64,000 nt of DNA, taken from positions 32,001 to 96,000 of IMG/VR virus record IMGVR_UViG_3300050821_006746; one strand, 5' to 3'. This document shows, in pieces, positions 9,035-51,288 of the stretch (its first letter is position 1; every line of letters starts with the position of its first letter). The DNA comes from a virus. A program made the translations under genes and the position numbers. The notes beneath the pieces were generated by a model. It saw only the letters and a list, made by a program, of their open reading frames with translations, did not search any database and was not told the DNA's origin.

Positions 9035-11195
9035 TTGGACAGAAAAGAGAAGGCTAACCGACGCGCCAAAGATGCCGTTATTGCGTTGCTTGTTGCATCC
9101 GAGCAGCCACCCAATGAGGCAGAGGCGCTAACTTCGATGTTGGAATGGGAAGACCTAACCTATACACAAGTGCTTGAGGCGCTTGATTATAACCTCAAGC
9201 ACAACGCCTATCGCAATGAGCAACTGGAGAACCATGCTAACTTATGTATTCGAGAAGCAGAGAAGGTGAAGGCGCGCAAACAGAGGGAGGCGGTTAGTGT
9301 CTAGACTTACCGAACCACGCCAGTACAAGCAGCGCACCCACGAAGAGATGCAAGACGCACTCAGACGCTTCTGCAACGCTGCATGGGGCAATCATGGGGC
9401 AAATGAGCGTAGTGTCTTCTCTATCCCACCTGACGATGAGGACGCTGATATTATTTTCTCTGATGTCATGCACGAACTGGTAGAGGCACGTAAACGGATC
9501 ATAGAACTTGAGGCAGAGGTACAATCGTTGCGAGAAAGAGAGAAAGAATAATGTGGGATATTCCTAAATACTGGTTAGTAGCATTCGGCATAGGATGCGC
9601 ATTCTTATTGCTTCTTTTGGCGTGGATCACAATATTTGTGCCACTCTTCAATCAAGCCGATTACAACAACTTCAATATCGAAGAGCAACTAGACAGAGCA
9701 GAGCGCATGGGCATTCTGAGCGCACTCAAGTGCTCAGTGAAGATGGCAACCATCTACAAATTGACGTTTGCCCATAGGATCGCCTGCTTAATGAGTGAGG
9801 TGCAGCCATGATCCATAGCGACGATCCCAAGATAACATTGCTCAAAGAGTGCTACGCATTGCTAGACGATATCCGAGATGAGGGTGTGTACAAATCAGCA
9901 ATCATTCCTGGTCTGCTTGCCCGTATAGTCCCGTTTATTTTTAGCCCTATCCCATACGAAGAGGTTTCCACAGTACGCTTTCGTTGTCCTGGTTGCCAAT
10001 CGGTGATGCTTGAGGTTTTACGCAGCGATTGGGCGACATGGGACCACATTACATGCGATTGTGGCAAACGTTACCGGGTTGTATGGTGTGAAGGCGAAAG
10101 CAAAGCGTATATTTTGGAGGATGTGCAGCCATGACTCATACTATCCCTGGTCGCGCTCATACGCCAGAACAAAAACGCGCAATCATCGAGCGCTTTTACG
10201 AAGCCTGGCTTGCTGTTCCTAATTGGCGGTTGCCTCAACTTATTTACAACGCTACTGGAGGCAAGGACATTTTCTATGTAGAGGATGAGCCTTTTATGGC
10301 AGAGATAGAGCAAATATCGGAACGATGGAGGCAACCATGACCCTCATCCTCTGGGCAACATCTCCCATCACATCAACGCTCGCCATATGGGCACTATCGC
10401 GCATCATCGGCGCTGGTATGTACTATTTCGCCGGTAGAGGAAGTAAGGTGCAATCGTGAAACAGCAGTATCACAAAACGGTCAAGCTCAAGGGATGGCAG
10501 ATCGAAGACGGAGAGGACATCGACAAAGCAATACAAGAGGTTTTGGAAATTATTGCTCAGCAAAAAGGAACAATCCACCTGATCGATTTCAAAATCTATC
10601 AGATAGATACACAGCCATTGCTAGCGCACCGCGAGACGTTCTTGACGGTTATGGCAGAAGAGGGGGAGTTATGAACACACCATGCCCACTCTGCAATACC
10701 CCAACAGACCTACACTCTGATTGTCCTGGCTATCCTGGTCGCGGCAGCAAAACAGGCTTTGTCATGGCATGCAACCCTCCATGCGGCAACGCCTGCCGCT
10801 TTGAGTGCCCTTCCTGCCATTGGTGGTATCGCACGCCAAACTGCCGCGATGCGAGCAAGATGGGCATTCGTCCCGATTGGCTAGACGCTGTACTGGCAGT
10901 GTTTGAGGAGGCGGAAAATGCGCTTTAAAAATAGGCAACGCAAGATAAGCAGAGGCGTAATGCCAATTCAAGAAATCCTAGACCAATACGGAGATATGCC
11001 CATGTGCGACTTTGTAGACCTTGCCATAACTCACGGTCTTATTCCACTGAACATGCATCTCAGCCCATACGATGAATTGGCAATATACCCACAACATCGG
11101 AGCACCCCAGCGCTGTCAGTGCAGAATGGGCCTGCATCATGAGCACAACACAAAAGCGGCGCACATTTCGCACGCCGCTAACCTCATCTGAATAC

Positions 11196-11435
11196 TCAAG
11201 CTGCTATGGATTTACGAGGAGGCTCTACCAGCGTACTCAAGTCAACTTCAAGCGCTCTGGCCAACTTGATAAGCGTTTCTCTTCGTGGCATTCGCCTACC
11301 ATTCTCAATAGTACTGATCGTATCAACATCAACATCTGCCCTAGTTGCCAAATCAACCTGTGTCATGAGACGGCTTTCTCTCACTTCTCGCAGGCGGAAC
11401 TTCGCCCCTACAGGTCTCTTTCGTGGTCTACCCAT
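11196..11435 (-). CDS. XRE-family HTH regulator
   Basis: LREVRESRLMTQVDLA...TISTIENGRRMP...LIKLARAL. Confidence 0.92.
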   Translation of the reverse strand: MGRPRKRPVGAKFRLREVRESRLMTQVDLATRADVDVDTISTIENGRRMPRRETLIKLARALEVDLSTLVEPPRKSIAA

Positions 11436-11561
11436 GTGTTATGTATCTCCTCATCGCTTATGTGGTTTGTGGTCTCTGAACATTTTCGGTGTATTTCTCT
11501 CAAGTTTAAATCACTGCCAAACAAAATTCAAGCCCAACTATCGAATGTACGTGTATTCACC

Positions 11562-11590: not shown

Positions 11591-12594
11591 ATCTAGAAAG
11601 AAAATCCGTTAAATTGCTAAGGAGACAATCAATGAGCAAAATCACGCCTGATCAAGAAACGTTCCTTGCTTTCGTAGCAAGTGAGATCGCAGGTCAGGAA
11701 CGCCTCAATCAATTCGCGACATACGAAGCTTTGAAGTGTATTTGCGAATACTATAATCACCCTACCGAATCAACAGCGCTTGACCTGTACTTTTTCTTGC
11801 GTACCCATGACGAAAGCAGGGCAATGGTCCACCAATTCAGGGAATACACACGAACACATCAGTTAAACGAAAACGATACCACCGTCAATCGCCAATTCAC
11901 ACCCGACGACAAAATTAGCATGGTCAAGGGCGCTATTATCGGTGCATTGGGCGGTGGTCACATCGATGGACGCGACGGGGCAAGTTATTGCAAGGCCGTG
12001 CTAGCAAGCATCGCTGAGATCCTCGATATCACTATCCCAGAAGATCTCAAGGCGGCAAACGGACTGCACTAGGAGCGCAACAATGAAAACAATCGATCAA
12101 CTCAGCAAATCGGGCCTGCGCAAACGTCGCCAGCATATCATGACCATGCCGTTGACGCCTGTCCGTGCTGAGAAAATCCGGCAAATTGAGGCGAGAGAGT
12201 GGGAGTTGTATCGAGAGGAGAATCCGCCAGTGAAGGCGCCTGCAAATTTTTTTGTACGGGAAGAGGAGTGGTAAATGAGATTCAAAGTACGAACCGCCGT
12301 CCAATTGACGCAAGAGCAACTGGCCACGCTGCAACGTCATGGTTGCAGGCCCATACCCTATATCACATGGGACCATGAATGGGTCTTTGCAGCGTATTGC
12401 GAGGATGGACAAGAGCAAGAATTGCGCAATCAGGCATGGCGCAAGCGGCGCGAACACAACCGCAAAATGATGTACTTCTTTGCTCTAATGGAGCAAGAGA
12501 CGGTCTCGCTGCAAGGCACGATGGTTGCTCTTGCTGAGGTCTACGTGGATGCCGCCCAGATGGCTGCAACGAACACAAAGAAGGAGCAAGAAGC

Positions 12595-12996
12595 ATGAGC
12601 AACTTCAACAACACAACCATTGTGGTAGCATCCATTTCACCACACATCTGGGAACAGGATAAAGGCGTTTGGAAGCAGTGGGTAACATCCATCGACGTTT
12701 CGTTCAAGACGAAGGAGACATACAAGCGGATTATCACACATTTCTACGGACTGCTTAATCTACCTATCTCTCAGATAACTGAGCAGCACATCAACGATTA
12801 TCGAGACTATCTGGTAGAAGATGGTAGAACTGAGAGAACTGTCAGAACCTACATAACCGTCATTAACAAGTATTGGCGGTTTGCTCAGGCATTGCAAAAA
12901 GCAAGAACAGCAACGGAAGAGACGTACCACGATCTGACCGAACTAGAAGTCTCGGTATTTGCTCAGGTTCAGCAAGAAATGGCAGGTGAAGCATGA
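12595..12996 (+). CDS. Stand-alone integrase N-terminal (SAM-like core-binding) domain protein
   Basis: SFKTKETY...ITEQHINDYRDYL...TERTVRTYITVINKYWRF; no catalytic domain. Confidence 0.75.
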   Translation: MSNFNNTTIVVASISPHIWEQDKGVWKQWVTSIDVSFKTKETYKRIITHFYGLLNLPISQITEQHINDYRDYLVEDGRTERTVRTYITVINKYWRFAQALQKARTATEETYHDLTELEVSVFAQVQQEMAGEA

Positions 12997-13541
12997 GCAT
13001 AGCCAATCCTGAAAACGTTCTCTGTACGCATCCCAACCAGTACCCGAAATTCGAGATTGACGTGATACCGGGCACAGATTGGGAGCTAGAAATCCGAAGT
13101 GAGCATGTCATTTATGCCTATCGATGGGATGACGAAGAATTTACCATGCAATACATCCTGTGGCCAAACGGAAACGATGCCATATTCACATCTCGTGACG
13201 ACGCCATAGAGGCTTGTAAACAATTCGAGGAGACGAAAACAAAATGAGCGAAGAGAGACAAATTGAAATTCGCCCTTTTGGCCAAATTGTTTGTCATCGC
13301 ACGCCGTCTAACCCGAAGTTTATGCGAGACCAGCATGTGATACGTCGCAACGCTACCGATGAGAGCAAGTTGGGCAACTTTGTAGCCTACTGCGAGGATG
13401 CGCGGCTTGCTTGGGTCTTCTGGGCAGGCGAGACTGAGGCAAGGAAAGTGCTACTCTCGAATTTGGCATCTATCGAGGATTGGCGTGTTGCTCGTGAACA
13501 ACAGGCTAACCTTGCGAATTATTGGAAATAGGAGCATCAAC

Positions 13542-17493: not shown

Positions 17494-20400
17494 GGTGAAA
17501 CACCAACGACGACTTGAAACAGCGAGACACATACAAGCGAAAGAAGGAGAGCGATGAGCACACAACCAACGCCATTGATGATTAAAACTCTAGAGCAAAT
17601 TGGGAACGACACCGTAACTGGATGGGGCTACAACAACAACCCGAATGGACAGCGCAACCTCAATGCCAACATAACCCACGCATTGATTAAACGTGGACTG
17701 CTAGAGCCTGCTGGTGAAATGTCATGGAGTGGGCAGAACACGCCTGTGTACCGTCTCTCTGAGTCAGGGAAGCAAGCATTGAGTGCTGCACTACCGCCCA
17801 CGACACCGAAAGATGAGTCTTGGAAATTAGTGTTTGCGAGAGGTGAACAATGGGCATAACAAAAATCACGTCAGCGCAACAGCAGATCCTCAACCAAATG
17901 CGCAGAGGCTATGCGCTCATTTCTCATATGGACACCAAATACCGTTCATTCAACATGCCTGCTGAGCATGGCGGATACCTGCTCAACACAGCGTCTTGTG
18001 CCATGAAGCCCGTTCTTCTCTCGACAATTAAAGCCATGCTTGGTAAAAATCTGATTGCCGAGGAAAAGCGCTATGTCTCATCAGATGGCTTCTGTGGTGA
18101 ACACCAGACGGAGAGGTGGCGCATTCACTACAAACTCAACCTGTGCATTCACTGCTATGAGCAGCCTGCTAGCGATCAGTTCAATGGCATGTTCTGCGCT
18201 GCATGCGCCAATGAGATGGGTGAGCAGTGGGAAACCGAACAAAACGAGCGTGTGAAGGAGATGGCGCAATGAACAAAAGAATGATCACGGCTATTACACC
18301 CAGGTCTGATTTTGTTGAGGTCGATCTAGCCTGTGGGCACACAATACGGTGGTTCCCGTTTAGCGAACAAACCCCTCAGCAATTGGCAGAGCACATGCAA
18401 AACCTAACACCCAAGCCAATACAAGTAGGCAAGACAAAGTTAAATTGCAAGGAGTGCACACAATGAGCAACGAAGAACGACAAGTATCGTGGATTGGCAC
18501 ACTCCACGTCACGTACAAAGCAGGCGATACCGGTATGATTATCCCCGAATATATCCTTGCCCGCATGACACCAGAACTGGTAGCAAGCGAATTGGAAAGC
18601 ATCGCACGACAAATCAGAGACGGTCAAGTACCGGATCAAGTCAAGCCGATCGATGAGGTTGATATTCTCCACCTGCGGCAAATTGCAGAGTGGCTAGAGC
18701 AACGCTATGGCACATCCAAGGAAACCATCGCGCTCCAGCCACAAGCGAAAGGACAACAACAATGATTACTGACGAGGCGATACTACAAGCAATCGAATAC
18801 AGGATGGATCAGTTAAACGCAACATTCAGCCTTGAGGATGGGCACATTTGCAGCAATAACGCTGATCTAGGAACCATTTCAAAAGTGTATCATCTTCCAC
18901 TTCATTGTCTTGCCCAACTAATCTGGAAAAGTAAGGAAGAGGCAGAGGTGAAAGCATGACACCAATCACAGCCGCCGCCACTATCCAGCGCATTGCTGAC
19001 AGTGGACTCGATATCAGCACTGAGGATTATCGGGCACTGGTAGAGGTTGCCCAATGGCTAGCGACGTTGCAAGAGCCAGTGAGCACGGAACTTGACGACA
19101 TAATTGACACACTCGACGAAACAATTGATGAGATTGTAGATACCATCCTTGACGACAACAATGTTGACACCCTCAACGATGAAGAAAGAGTTTCGCCAGA
19201 AACGTGGCTTTCTGCAAAAACAGAAATTTTGGCATTGTTGGCTCAGCGCAAGGAGAAGGCACAATGAGCAAACTCAGTTTCGCTTGTGGTCACACCGAAG
19301 AGCAAGAGCACGCACTGGTCAATGAGTTCTTTGACGGCTTGCGCGCTTACATGAAACAGTGTGGGCGCTTCATGGGCAAGCCGATTGCCGAGAACTGGCA
19401 AACACTCGACGAGCAAGCAAAAGATCACCACATTAATGTTCTGTTTGTGCGCCATGCGGTTACGCTCACAAAGTTGGCACACGACGCGATACACGAGGCG
19501 ACAAAAGCATGAACCACGAAGGCAAGCACTACATACACACCACTAAAGCGTGGTACTACGCTGATTGGGCACCACAGGAGTGGCAAGACGAAATTCGCTT
19601 TTTCACAGAGGGATCGGGAGCAATGTACATGCGCTGGTATGCTCGTCCCAACTTAACATCACGTTTAGAGGTGAACATAGGCGAGATGTATGCACTGACG
19701 ACACAAACGGAACTACTTTCAACGTTGGCTCACATTGCTGTGAGCGGCGAGAAAATGGCACCCGATGATTTTCGCGAGATCCTTGAGGAATGTGGTTTTG
19801 TGGATAGCACGCCTCTTACACAAAAAGGGCACCCCAACGAGGAGACACAATCATGATAGGGTTATCAGACATCGCAGAACAGGGCGAAGAATCGGGAAGA
19901 GAAGAAGCGGCATGTGATTATCCGTTCCTTCCTGATCCTCTAGATTATCGAGAATTGCGTCAATATGGGCGTGGTCGTGCGCAAGGCTTATACCGATTAC
20001 GCGGCAAAGCAGCACGTGTGTTTGCGCACAACTGGTCTATAGGCTACATAGCTGAGTGCAATTTATATAAACTGGTTTGCTCAGCAGAATTGCAGGAGGC
20101 GCAATCATGATAACACTCACCACAGGTGCACATCTCGCCAGTGTGCGAGAACGCCTCACAGCGCCGCTAGACGAGCAAAGCTATAACGACCTGGCAGTGG
20201 TAGCGCTCTTCTACTCGACGCACGCCACGACTGAGCAGCGTGTTGAGGCGGCATTGCTCTATGTGGAGGTGGTTCGCAAGGCGGCAGAGGCGAGACGAGC
20301 AACGCGACAAGATGATATAGCATGACACGTTGACATAATGTTGAGACAAGCGAGCAGTAAGGATAGCAACATGGAACAAGAGAAGCCACTCACAATCGAG

Positions 20401-21566: not shown

Positions 21567-21784
21567 CGCTGGCTAATGATAACAGCGACCCGCCATTGGT
21601 TGGCACCCTACGCGGGCCGTAAAACAAACTGAACCGCCAGGCAACGTGTTCAGCGTTGTCTAGAGGCTACGTGCGCCTTGTGATAGGCACATTGTTCATT
21701 TTACCTGATTGAACAAAGGAATGCAAGGATGGTAGCGAAATCGTGACGAATATTCCAGCAAATCAAAAATCATTGTCTTACCCC

Positions 21785-22328: not shown

Positions 22329-23087
22329 ATGAAACCATTCACCTTTGGCTCACTTTTCTCTGGCGTTGGTGGTATTGATTTAGGCTTGGAGCGGGCTGGT
22401 ATGCAGTGCGCTTGGCAGGTGGAGATAGATGATTATGCAACAAAAGTACTTGAAAAACAGTGGCCCAATGTTACCCGGTTTCGAGACGTGCGAACCGTTG
22501 GAAAACGCAACCTGCCAACAGTTGACCTTCTGGCAGGTGGATTCCCCTGCCAACCTCATAGTCTCAATGGCAAAAGAAAAGCCAGCGAAGACGAACGCGA
22601 TCTCTGGCCAGAATTTCGCCGGCTTATTTGCGAGCTTAAACCCGCTTGGGTGTTGGCTGAAAACGTCATGGGGCTACTTAGTTCAGAAAATGGTCACTTC
22701 TTCGGCGGCATTCTCAGGGACTTGGCCGCGCTCAGGTATGATGCACAATGGCAAGTGCTACCAGCTTCCTCCTTTGGCGCACCACACCGAAGAGAAAGAG
22801 TCTTCATTGTGGCCTACCCTCAGAGCCTCTATGTGGAAAAATCGCAAATGGTCCAATCACAGAAAAGACCACCATTTCAATTTGGAAGAATATCTTCCAA
22901 CGATTTATCCAGAAATCAATGGAAAACCAATCAACCCTCATTTTCTGGAATGGATGATGGGATTCCCTATTGGGTGGACAGAAGTAAGGGACTCGGAAAC
23001 GCAGTTGTTCCACAAATAGCAGAGAGCATTGCTTATCGCATTCTCATGGCAGATGCAGCAAGCAAGGATGAAACGGAAGTAGCATAA
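22329..23087 (+). CDS. DNA cytosine-5 methyltransferase, alpha polypeptide
   Basis: FSGVGG (I), GFPCQ (IV), ENV (VI), RRERVF (VIII), GNAVVP (X); motif IX absent. Confidence 0.93.
   Translation: MKPFTFGSLFSGVGGIDLGLERAGMQCAWQVEIDDYATKVLEKQWPNVTRFRDVRTVGKRNLPTVDLLAGGFPCQPHSLNGKRKASEDERDLWPEFRRLICELKPAWVLAENVMGLLSSENGHFFGGILRDLAALRYDAQWQVLPASSFGAPHRRERVFIVAYPQSLYVEKSQMVQSQKRPPFQFGRISSNDLSRNQWKTNQPSFSGMDDGIPYWVDRSKGLGNAVVPQIAESIAYRILMADAASKDETEVA
22429..23019 (+). CDS. Overlapping +1-frame beta polypeptide of the C5 methyltransferase
   Basis: 196-codon nested ORF with LWPTLRAS and INPHFLEWMMGFPIGWT (motif IX-like); true start uncertain. Confidence 0.8.
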   Translation: MIMQQKYLKNSGPMLPGFETCEPLENATCQQLTFWQVDSPANLIVSMAKEKPAKTNAISGQNFAGLFASLNPLGCWLKTSWGYLVQKMVTSSAAFSGTWPRSGMMHNGKCYQLPPLAHHTEEKESSLWPTLRASMWKNRKWSNHRKDHHFNLEEYLPTIYPEINGKPINPHFLEWMMGFPIGWTEVRDSETQLFHK

Positions 23088-23173
23088 CCTGGCAGTGCCA
23101 GTAATATAGAGGTTTGATTATGGCACAAGTAGCACGACCACAAGAGGGCAAAGAAAAGCAAGGATGGTAGCGC

Positions 23174-23818: not shown

Positions 23819-25459
23819 ATGATGGCAAACGCAGTTAGCCCACAGGATGAGCAGAAGATCAGCGAAAAGCAAAACACACCCTGGCGTGTGAAATTTACCT
23901 GCGACAAGAAAAACCCATCCTATCAAGAAATCCGCAAGGATCTTTTTGTTGCCTGTTGGGGCAATGCCAAGATGGTAGAGGTGCTATTTCACTTCCTGAA
24001 TACTGGTAGTTGGAAAGCGCATCACAACCACATGGACGAAAACACACGTGTGATTGTCCTCCAAGAAAAGCACTCTGAGATTTTAGCTAAAGTTAAACTT
24101 AAAGTCTCAGAGCCTACGCTTATCACATTCCTCAAGATGTTTGCTCAAGTTGGCTATGTTCGCAAAGCAGCCCGCAAGGGAGCACAAGAGATCAACTTTG
24201 AGGCCGTAGAGAAAGCATTCACAAACCCGCCTGAGAAGCCGGTTATCAGCAAGGATTTAAACTTAAATTTAAGTTTAAATAGTGAGCGGTCAAATGAGGT
24301 GGATAACCTACGTCAAGAGGTCGTCAATTTGCGCGAACAAGTGCAGGATTTAAGTTTAACTTTAGTTGGATTTAAGTCACTGTACGCTCAATTTGAGCAC
24401 GAATTTAAGTTTAACTTTAGCTCGCGAACTAAAGAATTTAACTTAAATGAATCGCCTGAGAGCACACAGGAAGCCAGCTCAGACCCACTTTTTTTTCCTA
24501 AGAATCCTTCTTTAGATATAAGAGATAGAGAAGAAGATGAAGAGAGTAAGAAGGACGATTGCGCTATCGCGCCGCTCGCACCTACATTTTTCGCTTTGCT
24601 TCCCTGGCTTTGGTCGGATGGGCTGGAAACACCCACAAGGTTACTTGTGGAATTAAACTCCACTATGCCAGTTGGTGAACAACAAAGGCGCTTATGGGCC
24701 ACTGAGCAGTACAAGCAGGAATTAGCTTCTAAAGGTTGCCCTGTGATGGTAGAGATGGTTTCAGAGCCTCCACAGAACGCCATTGATGCTGCTGCTACTC
24801 CTGAGTGGATTCTGGTTCTCATGGAGCCAGCACAACCCAAACAAGTATACGCTTCATATAGCCAGGAGTCACCTACACCCCCAGAGCAAAGTATAAAAGA
24901 TACGGAGGTTGGTGCGGCGCGTGGCTATATGCAAAGTACAGATGCAAATATACCTTCTGAGCAGAATAAGTCCACAAAGCGCACACGTGGCAAGAAAGCA
25001 GAGAAGGTTGAACAGTCAAGCCTCCCTTTTGACAAGGGCATCGCGCTAAACGAGGATGAACAGCGCATTTCTGATTGGTTCTGCAAGTTCTGGTTTATCA
25101 AAATCCCGCCAACAGTAAACGCATTGTACAAAAAACATTGTGGAACTTTAGTGCCTTTTGTCCATTCTTGGGAAGAAATGCAGAGTTTAGAGAAAGTGGC
25201 GCGAGTTTGGTTGCAAAGCCAACTTAAACCAGGGACAAAGGTTGGTGGATTGCATCTAGGTAATTTCACAAACACCAATGTTTTGAATAATTGGCAGCCA
25301 GATTTACCAGACAATATTGTCGCTATCGACTCAAAACAACGATCTGGGGTTGATACCTTTGCGCATGTACCAGCCTTTGGAGGGAAAACCGAAGAGCAAT
25401 TAGATGCTGAGTTGCCGGAGACTCTTGAGTTTCTTCGTGCGAGAGGCATAGCCATCTAG
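23819..25459 (+). CDS. Replication initiator (lambda O-like organisation)
   Basis: Directly upstream of a DnaC-like gene; N-terminal wHTH-like region; internal iterons. Confidence 0.7.
   Translation: MMANAVSPQDEQKISEKQNTPWRVKFTCDKKNPSYQEIRKDLFVACWGNAKMVEVLFHFLNTGSWKAHHNHMDENTRVIVLQEKHSEILAKVKLKVSEPTLITFLKMFAQVGYVRKAARKGAQEINFEAVEKAFTNPPEKPVISKDLNLNLSLNSERSNEVDNLRQEVVNLREQVQDLSLTLVGFKSLYAQFEHEFKFNFSSRTKEFNLNESPESTQEASSDPLFFPKNPSLDIRDREEDEESKKDDCAIAPLAPTFFALLPWLWSDGLETPTRLLVELNSTMPVGEQQRRLWATEQYKQELASKGCPVMVEMVSEPPQNAIDAAATPEWILVLMEPAQPKQVYASYSQESPTPPEQSIKDTEVGAARGYMQSTDANIPSEQNKSTKRTRGKKAEKVEQSSLPFDKGIALNEDEQRISDWFCKFWFIKIPPTVNALYKKHCGTLVPFVHSWEEMQSLEKVARVWLQSQLKPGTKVGGLHLGNFTNTNVLNNWQPDLPDNIVAIDSKQRSGVDTFAHVPAFGGKTEEQLDAELPETLEFLRARGIAI
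24085..24447. repeat. Iteron cluster / putative replication origin
   Basis: TTTAAGTTTAA(CTTTAG) at 24349 and 24404, inverted copy at 24085, 26-bp palindrome at 24255-24280. Confidence 0.75.
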
Positions 25460-33463: not shown

Positions 33464-33550
33464 ATTATACACTACGTTGTTAATTAATTGCAAGTGTTTT
33501 TGTGTGAGTTTTTGTGTTCCCTTGAAAATTGCAAGAACGTCGTTTATAAT
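33464..33550. promoter_or_regulatory. Divergent promoter pair
   Basis: Minus strand TTGCAA-18-TATAAT (33493-33464); plus strand TTGAAA-17-TATAAT (33522-33550). Confidence 0.7.
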
Positions 33551-33579
33551 TAGCAAAACATACCAGACAGGAGATAGAT

Positions 33580-33792
33580 ATGAGCGATATTGACTTGAAG
33601 AATAGCTTTCTTCCCGACGAAGCTGCTAAGTACCTGGGGATTAACGTCCAGAAGCTCAATAGATTAAGGCGTTTAGGCCGTCTACATGGTACTCAGGTAG
33701 GAACAACCAATCTTTTTACATATACCTTGGACGATCTGAGAAAAGCAGATTTGTCTGAAAAGAAGCGAGGACCAAAACCACATGGCACTTGA
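33580..33792 (+). CDS. HTH_17/MerR-like regulator
   Basis: FLPDEAAKYLGINVQKLNRLRRLGRL...KRGPKP. Confidence 0.8.
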   Translation: MSDIDLKNSFLPDEAAKYLGINVQKLNRLRRLGRLHGTQVGTTNLFTYTLDDLRKADLSEKKRGPKPHGT

Positions 33793-33866
33793 CTTTATTG
33801 ATGTCGTCGTTTATAATTATTTTGTGAAAGACGCAGTGCAGTAATTATAAACGGAGGTTTCCCTTT

Positions 33867-34502
33867 ATGAAGGAGAATGAGAAACGATGTTCTGTATGTA
33901 AAAAAGATTTACCTGCCACTCCAGAATTTTTTTATCGTAAGCGATCCCGTAAAGATGGTTTTAGTTCTAAGTGTAAGGGATGTGAAAACGAGAAAATCAA
34001 AGAACGCTTGTCATTGCCAGATGTTAGGGAGCGCAAATTGGCTTATGACAAAGCGTATGCTAGACGTTTAGAGGTGCGCGAGCATCGTAAGAAGTATTGC
34101 GATGTTTATTTTAGTGATCCAGAGGTCCAAAAACATGCTACCGTTCGGCGCAAAGGTTATCGTCAACTTCCCAAAGTTCGGGGCAACAGGCGTGTTGCGG
34201 ATCACACTCGTAGAATGCGAAAGAAAGCAATTTTAGGTGTATTTACTTCTCGACAGATCCAAGAACAGTTAAAACGGCAACGCTACCGCTGTTACTATGC
34301 GGCGTGTGGTTATGCCAAATTTGAAAAATGTGACGGGAAATACATCTATCATATCGATCATACTTTTCCCGTTAGCCGCATTGCTGGTATGGATATCCCA
34401 GCAAATGATATCGGCTATTTGGTATTAGCGTGTCCTTCTTGCAATCACAAGAAAAGCAACAAATTCCCATGGGAATGGCCTGAAGGTGGAAGATTGCTAT
34501 AG
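33867..34502 (+). CDS. HNH homing endonuclease
   Basis: CSVC...CKGC N-terminus; HIDH...LVLACPSCNHKKSNK. Confidence 0.88.
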   Translation: MKENEKRCSVCKKDLPATPEFFYRKRSRKDGFSSKCKGCENEKIKERLSLPDVRERKLAYDKAYARRLEVREHRKKYCDVYFSDPEVQKHATVRRKGYRQLPKVRGNRRVADHTRRMRKKAILGVFTSRQIQEQLKRQRYRCYYAACGYAKFEKCDGKYIYHIDHTFPVSRIAGMDIPANDIGYLVLACPSCNHKKSNKFPWEWPEGGRLL

Positions 34503-36773
34503 TTGAATTAACAATTAACATAGTGGGGCGGCTAATCCCGCCTCTGAGGAGAAACTGCAATGAACGCACAGAACGCGCAATCAATCGGCTATGAGGATGG
34601 CAAGACCTACATTAGTGGTTTCCTTGCCAATCGCGAAATGACGTTTGCCGAAGCAAGCAAACTGATGGATCTCGAATTTATTACTTTGCAGGCTGCACGC
34701 AATGTGGCAGAGCACACATATCGCGTACAGAGCAAGCGTACTGTCGATTTGTATGTGCAGGGTGCGCATGATGCATGGGAGGCTTGTGTGGCAACGTCTC
34801 AACGTGAAGCCGAAGAATCGGCGCGGCGTGCTGCTGTGGAGCACAACCCGAATACGCGATTTTGCACGTGCGCGGCGTGTAGCGGTAAAGGAGAATAGCA
34901 TGATAGGTTACTATGTTTGGTTTAATCATACGATCCATCGGTATGCGTTTACGCGTCAACATGTAAAGCCAACGAATGATCCGACGTGGGAATGGGTGGG
35001 ACATACTGATCACGGTGTTTTCGCTCAGGCGTATCTGCAAGAAGGTGGACCTGACTACTACAAAGTTGGAGAGAAAATAGCATGAATGATAACCCCATGC
35101 GCGATGTTATCGAGCAGATGAAAGCCGCTGCTCAACGCGAAGGCAAGCAGCAGACTAGCTTACAGGCGAAGGCGGCAATGGAGCTAAACAGAATCGACAT
35201 TGAGATGATTATCAGCCAATTGCTGATTGCTGGCATGGAACAAGAGCGGATTGCTGAGAAGGTGAGGGTACCGGATGGCTATCTGGAAATGGCGCAGTAC
35301 TTTCGGGATCTCTCGGCACGCATGAAAGCGTTTTGTGATGGGTCTAGTGCTGAGAAGTTTGTGCTGCGGGAAGGGGAATAGACATGAGCGAATTGGCATG
35401 GAAAATTATCGCTGCCTTCTTTGTTGGTGAGGGGTTTAATCGTTTTACACAGGAAGGGATGTCGTGCTCTCTTGCGGGATGGACATTGAAAAAATTGTTA
35501 GATACTGACGAATCCATCGATGCCGCTCAAGTGCTGCATGGAAGCGAGTTAACGCAAAGTAAATGGGAGTGCGCATTGCGCGAGTTGGTGGATCTGGGAT
35601 TGATCGAAGAGAACCCGAATTTGGGAGAACGCTGGCGATTGGTGGTAAAGACTTCTAAGCAGCAATAGCACACATCTACACAACATGCTATACTCTTCCC
35701 AATGTTGGCGACTTGCTCAGCAGGTCGCTTTTTTGTTTGGAGCACAACATGCCATTTCAGTCAATCGATTTGCTTAAAGACGCCTCTATAACCATAGGAG
35801 AGCATACCTATCCAATTACACACTTCGCCTCATCCACGTCAGAGATGATCGATCAGGTTGCACATTTTAGCCGCACGTGGGATGAACGGCGTGGCGATAT
35901 CCATTTTGAAACGTACACGGATGTAGAGTTAACCCCCTATGGAAGAGCAGTTATACAAGAATACCTCTCTAATGGACAATGCTGCGATGTCACGATCAAT
36001 TATGGTTATTCCCCTGTGGTAGCATCGTCTAGGCGACCGTGCCCACGCAACACCCGCATTCAGCGAGTGCAAGCCAAACGTAAGGCACTGTACCTGGGCC
36101 ACAATGGCAAATGTTGCTCGCTACGCACTCGTAAAGCGTCGCTAGCACTCAGGAAGGCAGAGCAACGCTGGTATCTCGATATGAGCGCTGAGCAGCCTGT
36201 GGCGAGCGAATATGAGCGTGTGTCTCCACGAGTAGCTAGGAAGCAGGCGAGCGATGCGAGGCGGTTCTATCGGAGCTTTGGGCCACTAAAGAATGATCCC
36301 AACTATCTCGATTTGGGTGAATACTTCGATCGAGAGATTGCGTACGCATTTACTGTGCCTGACCATGAGATTGGAGAAACATATAATGGATGAGCACGAG
36401 ATACTTGGTAAGATTGCCTACGAGGCGTATGAGCAAGCTTACAGTTGGGTTCGTCGTGGGCTGCTTGGATGGGATAAGTTGAGAGAGGACGAGAAACAGC
36501 CGTGGATAGCCGTTGGGCAAGCCGTCGCTGAGCGGGTGATAGCAGATTTGCAAACAGCGGTGGAGGCTAGCGAATGACTTTATATGTTTCCAAAGAGCAG
36601 GCCAGGAGTATGATGGTTGAGCACTGCTTGAGGTGCCACAAAGTACGTAGCCTGGGCTTTTATCAGCTAACTGAGCAAACACCTGTGATGATTTCCGTGA
36701 GCGAGGATCGACTGACGCAAGCAGTAAGTATACAAGAGTTTTGTGATTGTGACGAGCGAAAAGAGGCGAGTGA

Positions 36774-37003
36774 ATGACAGATGAGCAGTTACGTCTTATG
36801 GCTGAGATACTTGCTCGCTTGTTTTAGGCAGCGATTGGACTGTGCTATACAACGCGTGGGGTGCGAATGTGGGTCAGTGTCGCTATTGCGGTGCGGTTGG
36901 GGAAATCTACTATCCCGATATCCACTATAAGCACCAGGAGAAATGCCCCATTAATTTGTGTGTACAATTAAACCAGTCATTGCAGGTTAACGCCGCCCCA
37001 TAA
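36774..37003 (+). pseudogene. Frameshifted small Cys/His-rich gene
   Basis: Coupled ATG gives 17 aa then TAG; the -1 frame continues 59 codons with CRYC...HQEKC. Confidence 0.45.
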
Positions 37004-37050: not shown

Positions 37051-40003
37051 TAAGCCTACTCGTTTGGTTATTCTAAAATTTGTGGCGTATTTGCGAGCCT
37101 GGATATCTGTTTATCCAAAGAGTATGCTATGAGTAGACGTGAGCAGAATAGCATATCTCGACATCCTGTGCAAGAGCAATCAGCCAAACAGGCTACTACT
37201 CTAAATCTGGCAGCGGTATTGTGTTGCTGAGTTCCAGACATTCTCGTACATCGTAGAGCGGTGTGATTATCGGCTTTTTGCCCATATAGGGGTTGTATAT
37301 GTATGCCGATGGCTCTTGTGTAACTACACGATTGGTGGCTTCTACCTCTTCCTTGCGCATCAGCCATTGCGGTGCGGCGGCATGTGCAAAATAGCACACC
37401 TTGCCGAGACATTGCTCTGCGTTGGCGTCCGTTGCTCTGGTGAAAGTGAGCGTGCAGACAGTGCATCGGTATCTGAGCGTTGGCTTGCCGTAGATATTAT
37501 CTACGTGTTCTCCCACGAGCTGATGTGCGAGGTGCGGTTTGCGGGTAAAGATTTTGAACATGATTATCTCCTGTACTCAGGTGGTGGCAATAGTATCTTA
37601 CAGCCAGGGCACGCCCAAATTCTTGTGTCATTGGCGTAGTACTCATACCATTGCTTGCGGAGCGGGTTTACTTCGGTGGGATCTAAGGCTGCTTGTTCTC
37701 TTTCCGTTGGCGTGCTCATGCTTGCTCCCTCTTTTTCTGTTCTACCAGTGTGGTGCATCGTTCTGGAATACCTTCAACCATTGAAAGTATGTGAAGTGTA
37801 TGTCCTTGTCGATCGCCTTCAGGAAAATACTTTTCTACGCTTTCTTTAATTTGAGCCAATGCCCCTGACAAGAATCGCATGTGGTTTATTATCTCTTCTT
37901 TATCGTCTGGCGTTATCTTACTCATTAGTGCTCCTTCATTCTCCAGTGGATTGTCTCTTGCAACGCCTGATTAGGCGAGAAGCCTAACCGTCCATCCATG
38001 CGCTTATTGCGATAGCCGAAGTAACGGCATAAGAGGAGAAATAGTGCATTTTCGTCGATGTCGAGTGCTTCTAGCACTTCAATATTTTCGCGGTCTTCGT
38101 CACTGAGTTTCATTAGTGCTCCTCTTCTCGTCTTTGTGCATCCATAGTCAATCTGGTCAAGTAGCGATGCCAGTCCCATTTACGATCCTCCGAATAAATC
38201 CAGCCTGGCAACACTACGCCGGGACCTATTTTGCTGTCTCTCGTGTCGTTGTTGTAGACAAGCGTGTCAATTGCCATCGCTAAGGCTGTGCGGTAGACAC
38301 GCAACTCTTCCTCTGGGCTACTATAACCAGAATTGTATCTATCACTCAGTTTCCACCGAAGATCAGCAAGATTTCTGTTTTGGTCTTCGGTGCCGTCTGT
38401 AAAAGAATTGTGAATCATGATTGTGCTCCTTGCTCTGACTCAGGATCTATCTTTTCGCCCAAATACCGCATGAGCACCCAGTCCGCGCCCACTTTCCGTG
38501 TAGGGTCGTAGTCTTCGGGCGTGCCATTCCATTCCTCGATAGCCTTGAGCAGCGATTGTCGCTCTTTGTCGGGGAGAAAACTGAGATCAAAGTCATTGCA
38601 CCCATGATTGCTATATTGATCGGATGCGAGATCAAGCAACATTGCTATGAGTTTGCGTTCATAGGATTTGAGTCTTGCCATTAATGTGTCCCTTTATTTG
38701 CTCTACGTTTCTTCTTCAACCCGAAATGATAAATCCATTGCTCAGTTTGTATGTGAAACCAGCAGTACACGCCACTATTCGGGCATATGGGCATCTCTTT
38801 GCCGGATTCCAGGCAGAGTGGACAAAGTTGCTTTTTCATCAATGTGCTCCCTTTAAACATGGACATGGTAGTTATCGCTACAGTCATACATGAGAGCGAA
38901 CTCGCTTCCGTTGCAGTTTTCAATGTGATGCATTGCAATATCTTTTAGCCCATCTAATTCGTAAAATTGGATGATACTTCGCGAAAGCGCAAGGTCAAAG
39001 CCTCTTTGCCGATTTGTTTTAAGTCTTGCGGCAATGACTGGCATTCGATCATGCACGCGATAAACGATGGTTATGGTAAAGTCGTGCTCTTCTATGAGTG
39101 TTGTGAGCGTTTGTATGATGTCCTCTTCATTCATGACGTGCTCCCTTTAGCCTCGCCTCAAGTTCTGCGATTTGCTTCTCGTACTTCTGTGCTCCCTCCT
39201 GATAAGTGAGCATGTTCTTGCATGCGCTCTCCGCTCGTTTTTGTGCATCTTGCAATTCGTGTTGCAGTTCTCTCAGGTTCTCCCAATCTGAACCGCTTTT
39301 CTTGATCCACTCTTCCAACGTGCCTTCGGGATCTCGCATGTACTCAGCAATGTCTTTGGCGGCATTGGCTGCTACTTGTGACTGTGAGAGATCACCGCAA
39401 TAATCACTGTACTCTCTGATAAAAGGTTGCTGGTCTTTGCGTGCAGGCGGATACGTGACAGTGCAATCTGTTTTGCTGTCACCATCATAGTTGCTGTGCG
39501 TGTAGATGATGTGGATATCAAATTCGTGTACTTCGGTTGGCATGGGTTAATTCTCCTGTTTCAGTGCCATTCGCTCAATATAGCTGCGTGATGCCTCTCC
39601 CTCTGCTGTGGTAGCAGGGACAACTCGCACAGCCACAGCCACGCTATTGTCATTATCCGAGTATGGTACCTGCCAATCCTCTGTTTGCATGGTGTTGTTA
39701 GCGTTATGGAATACATCTGTTACGATAAAGAGGAGTGGCGTTTGATGCGGCAAGTCCTCGCCCGTTGGGGTGCGTATATGAGCAGTGAGACGAAGCGAGA
39801 TCTTTTCTCCAATGCGCGGAACAACGGGCGAGCGATACGCACCAATCTCTACTATGACCCCGGTTCTGTCATTCACTGCCTCTAAATAAATATCCATGTA
39901 TATGCTCCTTTACTCTATGCCGAGCAATGCGGCCAATTGATCGCCATGCTTGTTCTCTGCTCGTTTCAGACTTGCCAGATAGCGGCCTGTGGTTGCGAGT
40001 GAT

Positions 40004-40939
40004 TTAATACATGTTATCCGTTTTACCGGCTTCCAGTTCATCTAGTACATAATGGTCTACGGTTGTTTGTATTCTTTTGTGCCTTAAAGCTTTTTGGGCG
40101 AGTCTGATATCTTCTTTGGCTAAGATCGTGCCTACGAAGCGCCGAAAGTCATGCGGCTTAATATGCTCCAATTCACAACGACTGGCGTACTTTTGCACTG
40201 CATTCCAGATTGCTTGAGGTGTGATTGGTTTAAGGAGTATTTTTTCTCCTCTGCCCGTGAATGACGTAAAGATGTATTCGCATTCTATTGGACGTGCTAT
40301 AAGCCATGCTGTTATGGATGTGTGCGCCTCTTTGCTCAGGAAGGCGCTTACTGGCTTGATCTCGTTCTTGCCGCGTACTTTCAGCACATAGCCACCTTCT
40401 TGCTCCTCTATCTGGCTTTGTTTGAGTGTTGCCAGTTCGCTAGCTCGTATGCCAGAACTGGCAAGGGTATGGAGTAGAGCGCGGTCACGCAATCCTACCA
40501 GTGTAGCCGTGTTTGGCATCTCGCAGAGACGGCGCATATCCTCTGGTTTGATGCGAGTTCTAGCGTGTGGTTTGAGTTTGTCAGGATCGATCTTGACGCC
40601 TTCAATGTCTCTGAACTCTTCATAGATGGACCTGTCAATGAGTTTTCGTTTTTGAGCCTCTTTTATTATGCGTTTGATTGCTGACATCATACGATTGATC
40701 GTGTTGCTACTTTTGAAGGTTCCATCCTCTTGAGGCGTTAGAAGCATCCAATCGCGCCACTCTCGCATGGTTTGCGCGTCCATAATGTCTAGCTCTTTCT
40801 CTGATGCGAAATGCTGATAACTAGAAATGGAGTACTTGTACATTTTAATAGAAGAGTCAGCCAGATCATAGGTGAGCCAGTTTTGTAAATTCTGGCTCAC
40901 TGTATGGAGTGCGCTGTGTGGTACAAGTTGCCGATCCAT
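40004..40939 (-). CDS. Tyrosine recombinase (Xer/Cre-like, no arm-binding domain)
   Basis: RDRALL..SSGIRASEL, GK, PHDFRR, LRHK, HY; start at 40939 after GGAGG, coupled to the upstream stop. Confidence 0.93.
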   Translation of the reverse strand: MDRQLVPHSALHTVSQNLQNWLTYDLADSSIKMYKYSISSYQHFASEKELDIMDAQTMREWRDWMLLTPQEDGTFKSSNTINRMMSAIKRIIKEAQKRKLIDRSIYEEFRDIEGVKIDPDKLKPHARTRIKPEDMRRLCEMPNTATLVGLRDRALLHTLASSGIRASELATLKQSQIEEQEGGYVLKVRGKNEIKPVSAFLSKEAHTSITAWLIARPIECEYIFTSFTGRGEKILLKPITPQAIWNAVQKYASRCELEHIKPHDFRRFVGTILAKEDIRLAQKALRHKRIQTTVDHYVLDELEAGKTDNMY

Positions 40940-41418
40940 TAAACTTCCTCCTGTACGTAGCTCTCGATATACTGCAAAAGTGATTTTACTCTTTCCGGTT
41001 TTTCTTCCAGCAAACCAAGAGCCTGATTGCATGCACTACATAGCAAGCCTCTGACTCTTCCTGTGGTATGGCAGTGATCGACATGGAGCATAGGAATACG
41101 GTTTATTGTGCGCTTGCTTCTACCCGCATTATTGGTTTCTGGTTTTCCACAACAAGCGCATACACCGCTCTGCCCTTCTAGCATCCTCTCGTAGTCCTCT
41201 AGGTTAATGCCATATGCAACTCGAAGTTGTGCATCCTTCATTTTTCGGTAGTCGTATGATGCGTGTTTATGTGATGCAACGCAGACCTTACACCACGACT
41301 CTACCCCAAATGCTTTCTTGGGAGCAGGTGAATACTCAGATAGATTTTTGTGTTCTTTGCATCTCGAACATAGTTTTCTTCCCAGAGCATCTAATTCAAC
41401 GCGCTGACCTCTTGCCAT
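40939..41418 (-). CDS. Recombination endonuclease VII family protein
   Basis: YGINLEDYERMLEGQSGVCACC, LHVDHCHTTGRVRGLLCSACNQALG. Confidence 0.92.
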   Translation of the reverse strand: MARGQRVELDALGRKLCSRCKEHKNLSEYSPAPKKAFGVESWCKVCVASHKHASYDYRKMKDAQLRVAYGINLEDYERMLEGQSGVCACCGKPETNNAGRSKRTINRIPMLHVDHCHTTGRVRGLLCSACNQALGLLEEKPERVKSLLQYIESYVQEEV

Positions 41419-44611: not shown

Positions 44612-44630
44612 GCATGTCTGGAGATCAGTG

Positions 44631-47639: not shown

Positions 47640-48218
47640 GTGATGGTTGCATTAGCGAAGCCTTTTGTTAGAACATCAACAAGCAATGAGTGGTACACGC
47701 CTTTCCAATATGTAGAGGCTGCTAGGTTGCTTATGGGCACAATAGACCTCGATCCTGCCAGCAGTTCAGATGCCAATATGACTATCAGGGCTACGGTTTA
47801 CTATGACGCTCAGGCCAATGGCCTGAGCGTCCCGTGGAGTGGCAGGGTGTGGCTCAATCCACCCTACGGCACAACAAATGGGCAAAGCAATCAGGGAATT
47901 TGGACACGACGCTGTATCTATGAGTATCAAGTCGGCAATGTAAAAGAAGCCATTTTGCTTATCACGGCAGCAACGGATATGAAGTGGTTTCAAGTGCTTT
48001 GGAACTACCCACTTTGTTTTGTCGATCATGGGATTTACTTCTATCGTCCTCAAGAAAATGACGAAATGAAGCATGGGCAAGGTTCTTGTGTTGCCTATTT
48101 GGGACATCAAGAAGGGCGTTTTACTGATATCTTTCGCAAGTTTGGCCCAATCATGCGCCGTGTCGATAAGCCTTGTGAGATTGCACCTCTCAGTTTATGG
48201 GAGGTGAGCAATGTCTAG
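47640..48218 (+). CDS. Second phage DNA N6-adenine methyltransferase
   Basis: NEWYTP, IDLDPAS, WLNPPYG; paralogue of 16316-16927. Confidence 0.9.
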   Translation: MMVALAKPFVRTSTSNEWYTPFQYVEAARLLMGTIDLDPASSSDANMTIRATVYYDAQANGLSVPWSGRVWLNPPYGTTNGQSNQGIWTRRCIYEYQVGNVKEAILLITAATDMKWFQVLWNYPLCFVDHGIYFYRPQENDEMKHGQGSCVAYLGHQEGRFTDIFRKFGPIMRRVDKPCEIAPLSLWEVSNV

Positions 48219-49932
48219 ACGCTACTCCTCTGCACAAAAACAGGCTCAGGTATTACGTCGTCGTGTTGAGCGCCAAGAGAAAGTTAACCCTTTGTACGCG
48301 GGATATTCTGTAATATCTGATATGTCGCAACCGCGTACTATGTCTCGTGATATACGAACTTACATCAATGAAGGTTACTGTGGCAATGATACCCTTAACA
48401 AAGTAATCGGGTATGGTATAACAAATGGTGCGGCTATACCTCCTGTGCTCTTTACAGACCGAACGATGAAAAAGCGGATTAATAATCATCCAATCCTCGA
48501 TAAATTGGAAAATCCAAACTCTGAGATGGATGGTGTGTTTTATCGAGAGTGTGTGCTTGGCTGGTTTCTGCTTGCAGGATCTAGTTTTATGTATATCAAT
48601 CGTGTTGCCAAAGCAGGCCCACCCGATGAAATGTGGGTGCTTGAGTCAAACAAGGTCAAACCAATCCCTGATGAGAAGCGCGGCATTACAGGCTACGAGT
48701 ATGCTGATTTTCCTGCTGAGAAAAACCCGATCAAGCCAAATCTTATTGGTCATATGCGCAATTGGAATCCGCGAGATCCTTTCTTTGGCTTGTCTCCAAT
48801 CACTGTAGCGGCAATTCTTGTTGACCAACAATCAGCAATCAGGAAGTGGAATTTAGCGCTCTTACAGAACTTTGCAAAGCCTCCTGGTGCGTGGGTAACT
48901 GATGCTATTCTTGCTCCAAACGATAGGGCAAAACTTGAGGCAAGAGTCAATGAGAAGTTAACCGGATTTCGCAACGCCGGTAAGACGCCAGTGCTAGACG
49001 GCGCTCTCAAGTGGATGCCATCGGCGGTTTCGCCCGCTGATATGGATTGGTTAGAGAGCACTAAGTACAATGCTGGTGCTATTGCAAATGTTTTTAACAT
49101 GCCGCCCCAATTAATTGGTGATACATCATCCACAACATTTGATAACATGCAGGAAGCCAAAGCCGCAAGTTACACAGAATACATTTTCCCGATGCTGGAT
49201 AAAGAATACAGCACATTGCGTCGTTGGCTTGTGCCTATGTACCCTGATCTGTGCGATAGAAGCGGCAAGCCAGTTGCTTATCTCTACTATGACAAAGAGA
49301 GTGTTGAGGTAGTCCAGGCTGTTATACAAGCACGTAAAACCGCTGCTTCCCAAAGGGCCAATCAGTCATGGTCACAAGGCGCGGCGTCCTCCTGTACGCT
49401 CAATGAAGCCAGAGAGATGCAAGGATTGCCGCCTGATCCTCAAGGCGATATCTACCGTATTGGCGGTGTGTACGTGCGAAAAACCGATCTGGACAAATAC
49501 GCAGAGCAATCACTGACAGTTCCCGCAGCGCCGCCTATGCCTATCCCTGAGCCAATCGAGGATACTGGCAATCCGAGCAACCCAAGTAACCCGAATAATA
49601 CACAAGACGACACGCAACCTGCGAACGGCACAAAGCCGACGCCTGGAAAGAAGCCCAATGCAACTAATCCTGGCGATAGCAATAGCGGTAATAGCAAGCC
49701 TGGCAATAAGCCTGCCGCTAAACCTGCTAGTAAGCCGAAGAGTCGTGAGATCGGAGATCCAGAAGCACTTGATCTTACGAGCAAGCAGGATAAGGACACC
49801 AACCGAGCGGTGGAAGTCGAGAGAGAGCGATGGACCGACGACGCTTCCGAGCGCATAGACGTGGGAAGCAATGATGAGAAGCGTATCAAGCGAGAAAATT
49901 ATAGAAAATTTATGGATGAGGTATTAGTATGA
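48211..49932 (+). CDS. Portal protein (HK97 type) with Pro/Asn/Lys-rich tail
   Basis: HPILDKLENPN, FFGLSPI, NFAKPPG, IANVFNMPPQLIG, TLNEAREMQGLPP. Confidence 0.93.
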   Translation: MSRRYSSAQKQAQVLRRRVERQEKVNPLYAGYSVISDMSQPRTMSRDIRTYINEGYCGNDTLNKVIGYGITNGAAIPPVLFTDRTMKKRINNHPILDKLENPNSEMDGVFYRECVLGWFLLAGSSFMYINRVAKAGPPDEMWVLESNKVKPIPDEKRGITGYEYADFPAEKNPIKPNLIGHMRNWNPRDPFFGLSPITVAAILVDQQSAIRKWNLALLQNFAKPPGAWVTDAILAPNDRAKLEARVNEKLTGFRNAGKTPVLDGALKWMPSAVSPADMDWLESTKYNAGAIANVFNMPPQLIGDTSSTTFDNMQEAKAASYTEYIFPMLDKEYSTLRRWLVPMYPDLCDRSGKPVAYLYYDKESVEVVQAVIQARKTAASQRANQSWSQGAASSCTLNEAREMQGLPPDPQGDIYRIGGVYVRKTDLDKYAEQSLTVPAAPPMPIPEPIEDTGNPSNPSNPNNTQDDTQPANGTKPTPGKKPNATNPGDSNSGNSKPGNKPAAKPASKPKSREIGDPEALDLTSKQDKDTNRAVEVERERWTDDASERIDVGSNDEKRIKRENYRKFMDEVLV

Positions 49933-51288
49933 AGACGAATGCAGAGCTTTTTAATAGAGCAACGCATGCAGGCTATGACTATAAAAAAGTCTTTGGCGTA
50001 TATCCCGAAAAGATTGGCATTGCATATGACCGCATGAAGCACTTTCTCTATACAAGTGTTAATTTTCCTGAAATGGAAGATGCCACGATTGCATCCTTTT
50101 CTCTTGTTGACGAGAATTGGCCAACTGTCGGATTCCATACAGTCCCTTTTGTTCCTATTCTGGGAGATACCATTGATCCCGATGAAGTCTATCTGCCAGA
50201 TCCGAAAATGGGCGACAAAGCTTTTAGTGGTTTGGCGCTTTGTCGCATGGTTGAGACAAATGGGGCTTTCTATGAAATGATGCTTTATCAAATGGCAAGA
50301 GAGGTATTGGTATGAGCATATTAAGATTCGTAAAGTGTGAAATGTGCAAAAATACATTTCAATTGCCATTGGTATCATCTCTTGCCCCCTACGAGTTACC
50401 CGCTCTTTGGCTAACTCTTTACGAAGGCAACTCAGCAAATCATGAAGGTAAGCATTTTTGCTCTGAGGAATGCCTGCGGCAATATTTTCAGATAGCGACT
50501 ATGCCGCAAAAAACAGAGCTACCGTCGCTTGACGAAGATGACGACCTACCACCAGATGAGTTCTTGCCATTCAGAGGCAAGTGTTTGCCTGATGGTCGCG
50601 TTGTGTCTTTGGCTGATGGGGCTATTTATATTCCAGAGCCACAAGAGAATCCAGATTGCAAGGCGCGGCGCTTCCTTCTTGCAGATGGTGAGACAGCGGA
50701 GTTTACCGATGGTGTGAAGTGGGGCGATGGGAAGGTTTCCATTGAAGCAAAAAATCAGAATGAAATATGGACATACGATGCATGGGATGATTTGAAAAAA
50801 GCGAATCAAGGCTCTGGCGTGCAATGGATCGATCAGGAGGTGAGCAAGTGAGTATGCCGCCTAGTAAGATTGATATCTACATCGATGGGCAAAAACTTAC
50901 CTACGGTTTGTTGCTTGATAAGCCGCAAGAGGGACGCCGCGCCATTTTCTTGCTTGCTCAAAGTTATGGTAAGCATGAGCATCATAGCGTTGCTGATTTG
51001 GAATGCGGGAATATTGCCAGGGTTTTGGATGGACGCCAGACAGCATTGAGAGAAGCTGCTGCTAATCGCTTTCCTGAAGATCCACGATCTACAAGAATAC
51101 ATGCTTTGCATTATAAGGCTGTAGAGAAAACACCAAACTATCTTGCATGGAAATATGTGTGGCGAAATATCCAGCAAAAGCATATAGATTGGCTCTATCA
51201 ATTGCGTGGTTGCGGCTTTATCAGTGGGCTTATTGTTGACTACGATTCTGAGTATCAAGGTGACATCATCCCACCTGGTCAAATGGCG

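Follow-up and report, generated by a model that had tools for sequence, protein, structure and literature searches.

How does a phage gain a single gene without breaking an operon whose genes are translationally coupled, through random illegitimate joints that are later selected or through recombination targeted to gene boundaries? Short boundary sequences, or random illegitimate recombination filtered by selection, give such seamless gene gain, and the work of Juhala et al. in 2000, of Clark et al. in 2001 and of Hendrix is said to have placed mosaic joints at gene boundaries and to have described the boundary (linker) sequences of lambdoid phages. The question is raised anew by a stretch of 64,000 nucleotides (nt; hereafter the window), bases 32001-96000 of the 109,141-bp IMG/VR virus record IMGVR_UViG_3300050821_006746, which carries 97-bp terminal repeats. 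An earlier reading of the letters (the original prediction) had claimed that many accessory genes in this window carry nearly the same sequence at both ends, that the repeat differs from gene to gene, and that it covers the Shine-Dalgarno (SD) sequence, the stop codon of the upstream gene and the start codon of the next. From our analysis, all eight of the repeats then listed were located, each of them specific to its own pair or array, and the similarity of neighbouring junctions is confirmed as real, non-random and junction-specific, spanning SD, spacer and stop/start. We assign a probability of roughly 60% to the reading that illegitimate recombination through short homology, acting at translational-coupling junctions, left these repeats as scars.

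Genes were called across the full record (n = 206) by means of a simple model of codon usage and ribosome-binding sites; most of these roughly 200 genes are tiny, 43% begin with ATGA, and several DNA methylases, two HNH proteins and one response regulator are also encoded. Start regions (-22 to +12) were cut out and compared in all pairs, anchored on the start codon, and the expected values were taken from gene pairs at least 6 genes apart. In seven adjacent same-strand pairs, the two genes have an identical stretch of 10 nt or more that crosses the start codon, where 0.34 such pairs were expected (Poisson P = 7.5e-8). The comparison of adjacent with distant junctions had been set beforehand as the test of the claim, and the excess held: none of 5000 permutations of gene order reached seven pairs (maximum 4), and a conservative shuffle inside blocks of 12 genes reached seven once in 5000. 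The identity was also claimed to run through the normally free spacer, and so it does, as five adjacent pairs were identical at 7 or more of the 8 spacer positions (-8 to -1, SD and ATG excluded) against 0.26 expected. Junctions of the ATGA class taken by themselves gave six adjacent pairs (0.33 expected), and a mismatch-tolerant block score gave 12 pairs at a threshold of at least 10 (0.68 expected) and seven at a threshold of at least 12 (0.15 expected). The signal collapses beyond neighbours, with just one or two block-score pairs at each distance (d) of two to five genes. In a test independent of gene calls, 11 of the 91 local exact direct repeats of at least 11 nt had both copies at gene starts, where 0.25 were expected. 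Every repeat is restricted to its own pair or array and occurs nowhere else in the genome at up to 1-3 mismatches. The copy-to-copy distances equal 2 modulo 3, as consecutive ATGA overlaps demand. The repeats are 10-24 nt long, have no common motif beyond the SD and ATGA, and occur on both strands across 66 kb or more (genome 25.7-92.8 kb).

The duplicated junctions can be followed along the window (plus strand unless stated). A series of four junctions lies at 9.8-10.5 kb, counting diverged copies at 10337 and 10456. Its first copy (9800-9811; 12 nt) ends an upstream open reading frame (ORF) in VQP-stop and overlaps the ATG of 9808-10134, a gene of 108 amino acids (aa) that is closed by a second, identical copy (12/12; 10123-10134); the third copy (10331-10341) is diverged to 10/11 and its upstream ORF likewise ends in QP-stop, and the fourth (10447-10459) is also diverged, with a GTGA overlap. 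Further downstream, a 12/12 repeat (12590-12601 and 12988-12999) flanks the gene 12595-12996, an imperfect 24-nt repeat (20/24; 18447-18470 and 19248-19271, d = 3) brackets a block of three genes, and a 17/19 repeat (19840-19858 and 20094-20112) flanks the 85-aa gene 19853-20110. The 61-aa gene 34900-35085 is bounded by a 10/10 repeat (34894-34903 and 35076-35085). The weakest of the listed pairs is a 14/16 repeat at 36563-36578 and 36763-36778, where both upstream ORFs end in EASE-stop and the ATG of the right copy opens an ORF of 17 codons only. This pair, the 34894 pair and the third QP junction at 10331 are individually weak (about 0.67-3 chance occurrences expected for each) and, taken one by one, could be due to chance. 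On the minus strand, a 14/14 pair (37922-37935 and 38110-38123) flanks the 62-aa gene 37925-38113 in an operon (37.9-39.9 kb) where six to seven junctions have a related SD-proximal core. We also found a 12/12 pair that had not been listed earlier (60439-60450 and 60765-60776), which extends 8 nt into coding sequence, and an additional minus-strand array of six genes upstream of the window (genome 25.7-27.1 kb), with junctions consisting of Glu-Glu-stop, spacer and ATG.

The eighth listed pair lies in the head operon, where relatives indicate which gene is extra. The HK97-type portal gene (48211-49932, plus strand, as are all genes of this site named below) ends in ...FMDEVLV-stop, a C-terminus kept in dozens of homologs as ...YRKFM(D/E)EVLV-stop. 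Its final 15 nt (49918-49932), which encode E-V-L-V-stop with an embedded ATG, are read as the ancestral junction, and a second copy (14/15) lies at 50301-50315. The ATG of the first copy opens gene X (49929-50315; 128 aa), which belongs to a family of small proteins that differ in their tails, and the second copy supplies the EVLV tail of X. Gene X is followed by gene Y (50312-50851; 179 aa, Cys-rich), by a further insert, gene Z (50854-51339; 161 aa), and by the prohead protease (S78) fusion (51336-53048). Most relatives have no gene in between, their portal stop overlapping the protease ATG; here X, Y and Z intervene. X is absent from the portal site in all the relatives examined; in L006/L087 and in L103 the portal runs directly into a Y homolog, and the portal-Y junction of L006 equals the X-Y junction of the present phage at 14 of 15 positions. 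X therefore sits between two copies of the portal-Y junction. X is no orphan, as a full HMMER scan gave 38 remote homologs, with alignments that begin at the initiator Met and extend to about residue 110; the tails of the 22 aligned homologs are unrelated and variable, and none of them (0/22) ends in EVLV. Since the tail of X copies the portal end and the family starts at the same Met, the breakpoints lie at ATG(A) on the left and at the SD on the right. As judged from these alignments, X behaves like an insertion with target duplication, in support of our reading. The original prediction had likened the repeats to target-site duplications and had pointed to empty sites in relatives; at the portal site both hold. 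The duplication around Z is partial (SD and GTGAG common, spacer different) and remains ambiguous.

Some further observations concern the same region. Z and 58786-59118 are similar up to the protease SD and not beyond it, and an exact 36-nt patch that they have in common (51289-51324, plus strand, and 59041-59076), the longest dispersed repeat of the genome, ends precisely where this SD begins on its 5' side, which agrees with the breakpoint inferred for X. Owing to this patch, Z and the product of 58786-59118, small proteins unrelated to each other, both have the peptide IVGEAGNDEIVY close to the C-terminus, and the product of 58786-59118 continues with LPQGSSVYP, like the C-terminal motif of a tape-measure-type protein (genome 97131-100319, outside the window). 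The portals of most relatives (compared with P0002-P0011) are about 800 aa long and have a Mu-F-like domain (PF04233) before the conserved C-terminal tail. We rejected the idea that X had split the portal from its Mu-F domain, as this domain is an internal insert in the relatives and is simply missing here; tblastn found no Mu-F domain elsewhere in the genome, and the portals of some other phages are also without it. The capsid protein is encoded at 53218-54537.

The portal family yielded three distant relatives of about 100 kb (G001-G003), which have 14-25 mostly structural genes in common with the present phage, and the adjacency effect is replicated in two of the three. With the same pipeline, G003 gave six adjacent pairs against 0.18 expected (0/2000 permutations), including an array of five consecutive unrelated genes with one junction, of which four copies are exact and the fifth has one mismatch. 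G002 has two adjacent pairs of 21 and 14 nt (32/2000 permutations), and the single 18-nt pair of G001 is not significant. Among classic phages run as controls, we counted four adjacent pairs in T4 (1.28 expected), two in T5 (0.43 expected), one in SPO1 (0.16 expected), three in FelixO1 (0.52 expected) and none in TM4; the excess is at most weak, and much of the shared sequence lies within N-terminal codons. The effect is thus not universal: this family shows an enrichment of some 20-fold or higher, and the five classic phages one of 2- to 6-fold or none. The statistic is simple and could be applied to all phage genomes to gauge how frequent this route of gene gain is.

How such scars could arise follows from the build of the junction. 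It is bifunctional because the upstream gene holds the SD and spacer in its final codons and has a stop that overlaps the ATG. The recombination that we infer could have taken one of two routes. Related genomes infecting one cell together, with different genes downstream of a shared upstream gene, could have crossed over unequally, or an incoming fragment could have been inserted through a joint at each end. Surviving products would hold one junction copy that completes the upstream protein and a second that translates the downstream gene; the incoming gene would begin on the junction ATG and its tail would be encoded by the second copy. If the crossovers fall in the elements common to junctions (SD, ATGA), the duplicated unit would extend from about the SD to ATG(A) with the site's own spacer, as a left joint at ATGA and a right joint at the SD would duplicate that spacer. 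Crossovers at other positions would leave no repeat, which would fit the mixed picture among relatives. Repeated events at one site would give arrays of unrelated mini-genes parted by one junction, and older copies would drift, as may be seen in the 9.8-10.5 kb series and the 37.9-39.9 kb operon. The same repeats would permit later loss, duplication or amplification of the gene via slippage or single-strand annealing, so accessory genes liable to be lost could be predicted from the repeats. Such duplications would be of value as physical traces of past joints, with breakpoints located at the SD and the ATGA overlap. Short-homology events without a recombinase, akin to the RecA-independent slippage that the original prediction had named as an alternative, fit the data better than a dedicated system.

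A more ambitious version of this scheme, which we hold as doubtful, is that the duplicated junctions are working mini-attachment sites, at which a gene with one junction copy leaves the genome, either by copy-choice or in the form of a circle, to be taken up again by any related genome with the same junction. Coding constraint (e.g., on the portal tail) would hold such junctions constant, so they could act as family-wide landing pads. If such present-day mobility were real, it would be a recombinase-independent, translation-signal-based exchange of cassettes in tailed phages, able to load even the head operon.

Several observations weigh against the reading of the repeats as recombination scars. 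For the portal site, the direction of the event was deduced by parsimony from mosaic relatives with portals about 50% identical. Other inserts at this site in relatives are without clear flanking duplication, namely Y in L006, a small gene in L025, a Dam methylase in L016/L098 and a gene of about 185 aa in L103, and all of these portal-site inserts retain stop/start overlaps on both sides. The idea that the X family is always bracketed by duplications was rejected, as the X genes of L106-L108, in two other phages, are without duplicates; junction duplication is an occasional outcome, not the rule. No donor sequence was found for any cassette. Nor was any relative near enough to give a nucleotide-level empty site at any cassette of the early region. 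In this regard, megablast against 50,697 deposited phages gave no nucleotide match, the best match of the portal in a set of 5.8 billion proteins is at most 66% identical, an IMG/VR search with the portal and cassette proteins returned distant kin or nothing and no close relative, the exact 21-mer of G002 is confined to G002, and a single metagenome scan returned this distant family once more and no closer kin. Finally, the SD-proximal cores seen operon-wide on the minus strand at 37.9-39.9 kb could come partly from selection on translation signals.

This last point leads to the strongest of the rivals, which we nevertheless rate as unlikely, namely that no gene was inserted and that translation-initiation regions were homogenised locally, by selection (for co-regulation, matched output or the site of a translational regulator) or by short-patch templated mutation or gene conversion. 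The operon-wide cores, which recur in the array upstream of the window and in the five-gene array of G003, speak in its favour, as does the slight excess of scores over expectation at d = 2-5, and the start-associated sequences of Cluster K mycobacteriophages are a precedent for conserved start-proximal repeats (PMC3203893). Homogenisation does not account for the confinement of each repeat to its pair or array, for the sharp fall in similarity from d = 1 to d = 2, or for the portal site, where the flanked gene is demonstrably extra relative to kin. Mismatches between copies in four genomes show no codon periodicity (9, 6 and 9 at the first, second and third positions), which also tells against it; the same spread ruled out protein-level selection on the repeat-encoded tails, a candidate raised by early cases that seemed synonymous. 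A rival in which a gene was duplicated in tandem along with its junction and the copies then diverged past recognition is improbable. In its favour, the adjacent paralogs 28702-29088 and 29085-29366 (E 1e-9) have downstream junctions alike at 20/27 positions, and the matches of the T4 control mostly reach into N-terminal codons in a paralog-like manner. This is, however, the sole adjacent paralog pair in an all-against-all blastp and the only tandem paralog array seen by blastp and Smith-Waterman comparison; none of the repeat-flanked genes is involved, no protein similarity was found in any pair with a run of at least 10 nt or in any array member, and Smith-Waterman comparisons within the six-gene (G000) and five-gene (G003) arrays all gave z<3. 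With neither paralogy nor array similarity, duplication with divergence fails to explain the pattern. Perfect conservation of 12-21 nt, free spacer included, is incompatible with divergence that erases protein similarity, and X and Y each have homologs of their own and represent distinct families.

The original prediction had proposed an integron-like accordion, with the tyrosine recombinase and the core-binding-domain gene as candidate players. A dedicated integron- or transposon-like system, in which a phage recombinase moves one-gene units in and out of junctions and leaves true target-site duplications, we consider very improbable. Its attraction is plain, as arrays of unrelated ORFs parted by one repeat look like cassette arrays, a tyrosine recombinase gene (40004-41032, minus strand) is present in the window, and one cassette holds the gene of a lone core-binding domain. 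The recombinase is, however, a generic phage integrase/Xer-like protein, with 85-97 bits against Xer-type NCBIfam models that have cut-offs of 220-335, and it is not IntI-type, as it has no match to the NCBIfam integron-integrase equivalog. Nothing connects it to the repeats, which are scattered on both strands and in some cases lie up to about 35 kb away, with no attI/Pc beside the integrase and no adjoining array. The core-binding-domain gene (12595-12996, plus strand) encodes an isolated integrase N-terminal SAM-like domain of 133 aa, is the only flanked gene named by Pfam and PHROGs scans, and is merely cargo. Single-stranded DNA folds of nine junction regions gave z-scores from +1.7 to -2.6 with no common structure, and thus no consistent attC-like hairpins. 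Transposon-type target-site duplications do not fit either, given lengths that vary from 10 to 24 nt and the lack of a common terminal motif just inside the repeats, and the Pfam/PHROG scans of the cassette genes returned no transposase family. In the 9-21 kb region we counted nine promoter-like sites (14.1 expected) and 15 terminator-like sites (11.8 expected), none at junctions; the flanked genes are stop/start-overlapped on both sides and are not morons, which have their own promoter and terminator. The same pattern moreover appears in relatives that have few genes in common with this phage. Nothing points to a dedicated cassette machine, and a dedicated enzyme is probably absent. Chance similarity among constrained SD/ATGA junctions has next to no credence left: short matches are frequent when 43% of junctions are ATGA-type with a common SD, but a collective excess of 20- to 45-fold, with permutation P<=2e-4 and replication in G003, refutes chance for the set as a whole.

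The finding can be placed among known systems. It is like the mosaic joints and lambdoid linkers in having novel joints at gene boundaries, but those are exchange points between genomes, whereas here the junctions are duplicated within one genome. Integrons have in common with it the arrays of unrelated promoterless ORFs parted by a repeated element, but here the repeats are variable and there is no attC structure, IntI-type integrase or attI/Pc. In T4-type phages, the PeSL (promoter-early stem-loop) cassettes are short repeats that bracket single, mostly ORFan genes in plastic regions, and recombination between neighbouring repeats was proposed to insert, delete and shuffle these genes, with mini-circles demonstrated (Arbiol et al., 2010; PMC2839356). 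The likeness lies in short repeats around single genes; PeSL, however, is one shared intergenic module with a sigma-70 promoter and a terminator hairpin, whereas the present repeats are without promoter, terminator or hairpin, are 10-24 nt long, differ from site to site and lie inside coding sequence at stop/start overlaps. The SAS/ESAS elements of Cluster K mycobacteriophages are SD-containing conserved sequences a few nt 5' of non-structural gene starts, and the SAS, a single dispersed 13-bp consensus conserved across subclusters, sometimes includes the upstream stop (Pope et al., 2011; PMC3203893). The junctions described here similarly include the SD and the stop near the start, but each sequence is limited to one pair or array, and the TM4 control has no adjacency effect. 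No description of site-specific duplicated stop/start junctions flanking a gained gene was found in the literature covered, which did not include subscription journals and so leaves their absence unproven. The finding is probably a variant of repeat-associated modular shuffling, and the mechanism ordinary recombination.

The portal-protease junction of the HK97-type head module is a recurrent landing site, where three additional genes are found in this phage and different ones in L006, L103, L025 and L016. The gene of about 185 aa in L103 (L103:2284-2826; VTCIVGLVEDGK...) lies between the Y homolog and the protease with GTGA/ATGA overlaps on both sides, and is another independent insert at this hot spot. 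Two paralogous Dam-type methyltransferase genes of the present phage (16316-16927 and 47643-48218) are 43% identical, and it is a homolog of the latter that fills the portal-protease gap in L016/L098. Between the head-tail genes 55735-56430 and 59400-59789, there are about 13 small genes (56438-59399), and the homologs of the two outer genes adjoin directly in G001 and G003 and have one intervening gene in G002. Several of these inserts start with MDDK or MNDKEE, and those at 57276 and 57596 are alike at 15 of 18 nt after the ATG; a duplication of the outer junction was looked for around this block (56430-59400) and none was found.

Other repeats in the window differ from the junction pairs. 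Within the gene 23822-25459, which encodes 545 aa with no Pfam match, a cluster of direct repeats of 11-18 nt and their complements (ATTTAAGTTTAA-type unit; 24093-24420) may serve as iterons in an origin of replication. A 15-nt repeat with an SD-like core (21723-21737 and 23158-23172, also 23060-23070) sits just 5' of the starts at 21743 and 23174 and brackets a methylase block. An exact 15-nt repeat with TATAAT (33538-33552 and 33805-33819) precedes 33580-33792 and the HNH gene 33867-34502, and resembles a duplicated promoter.

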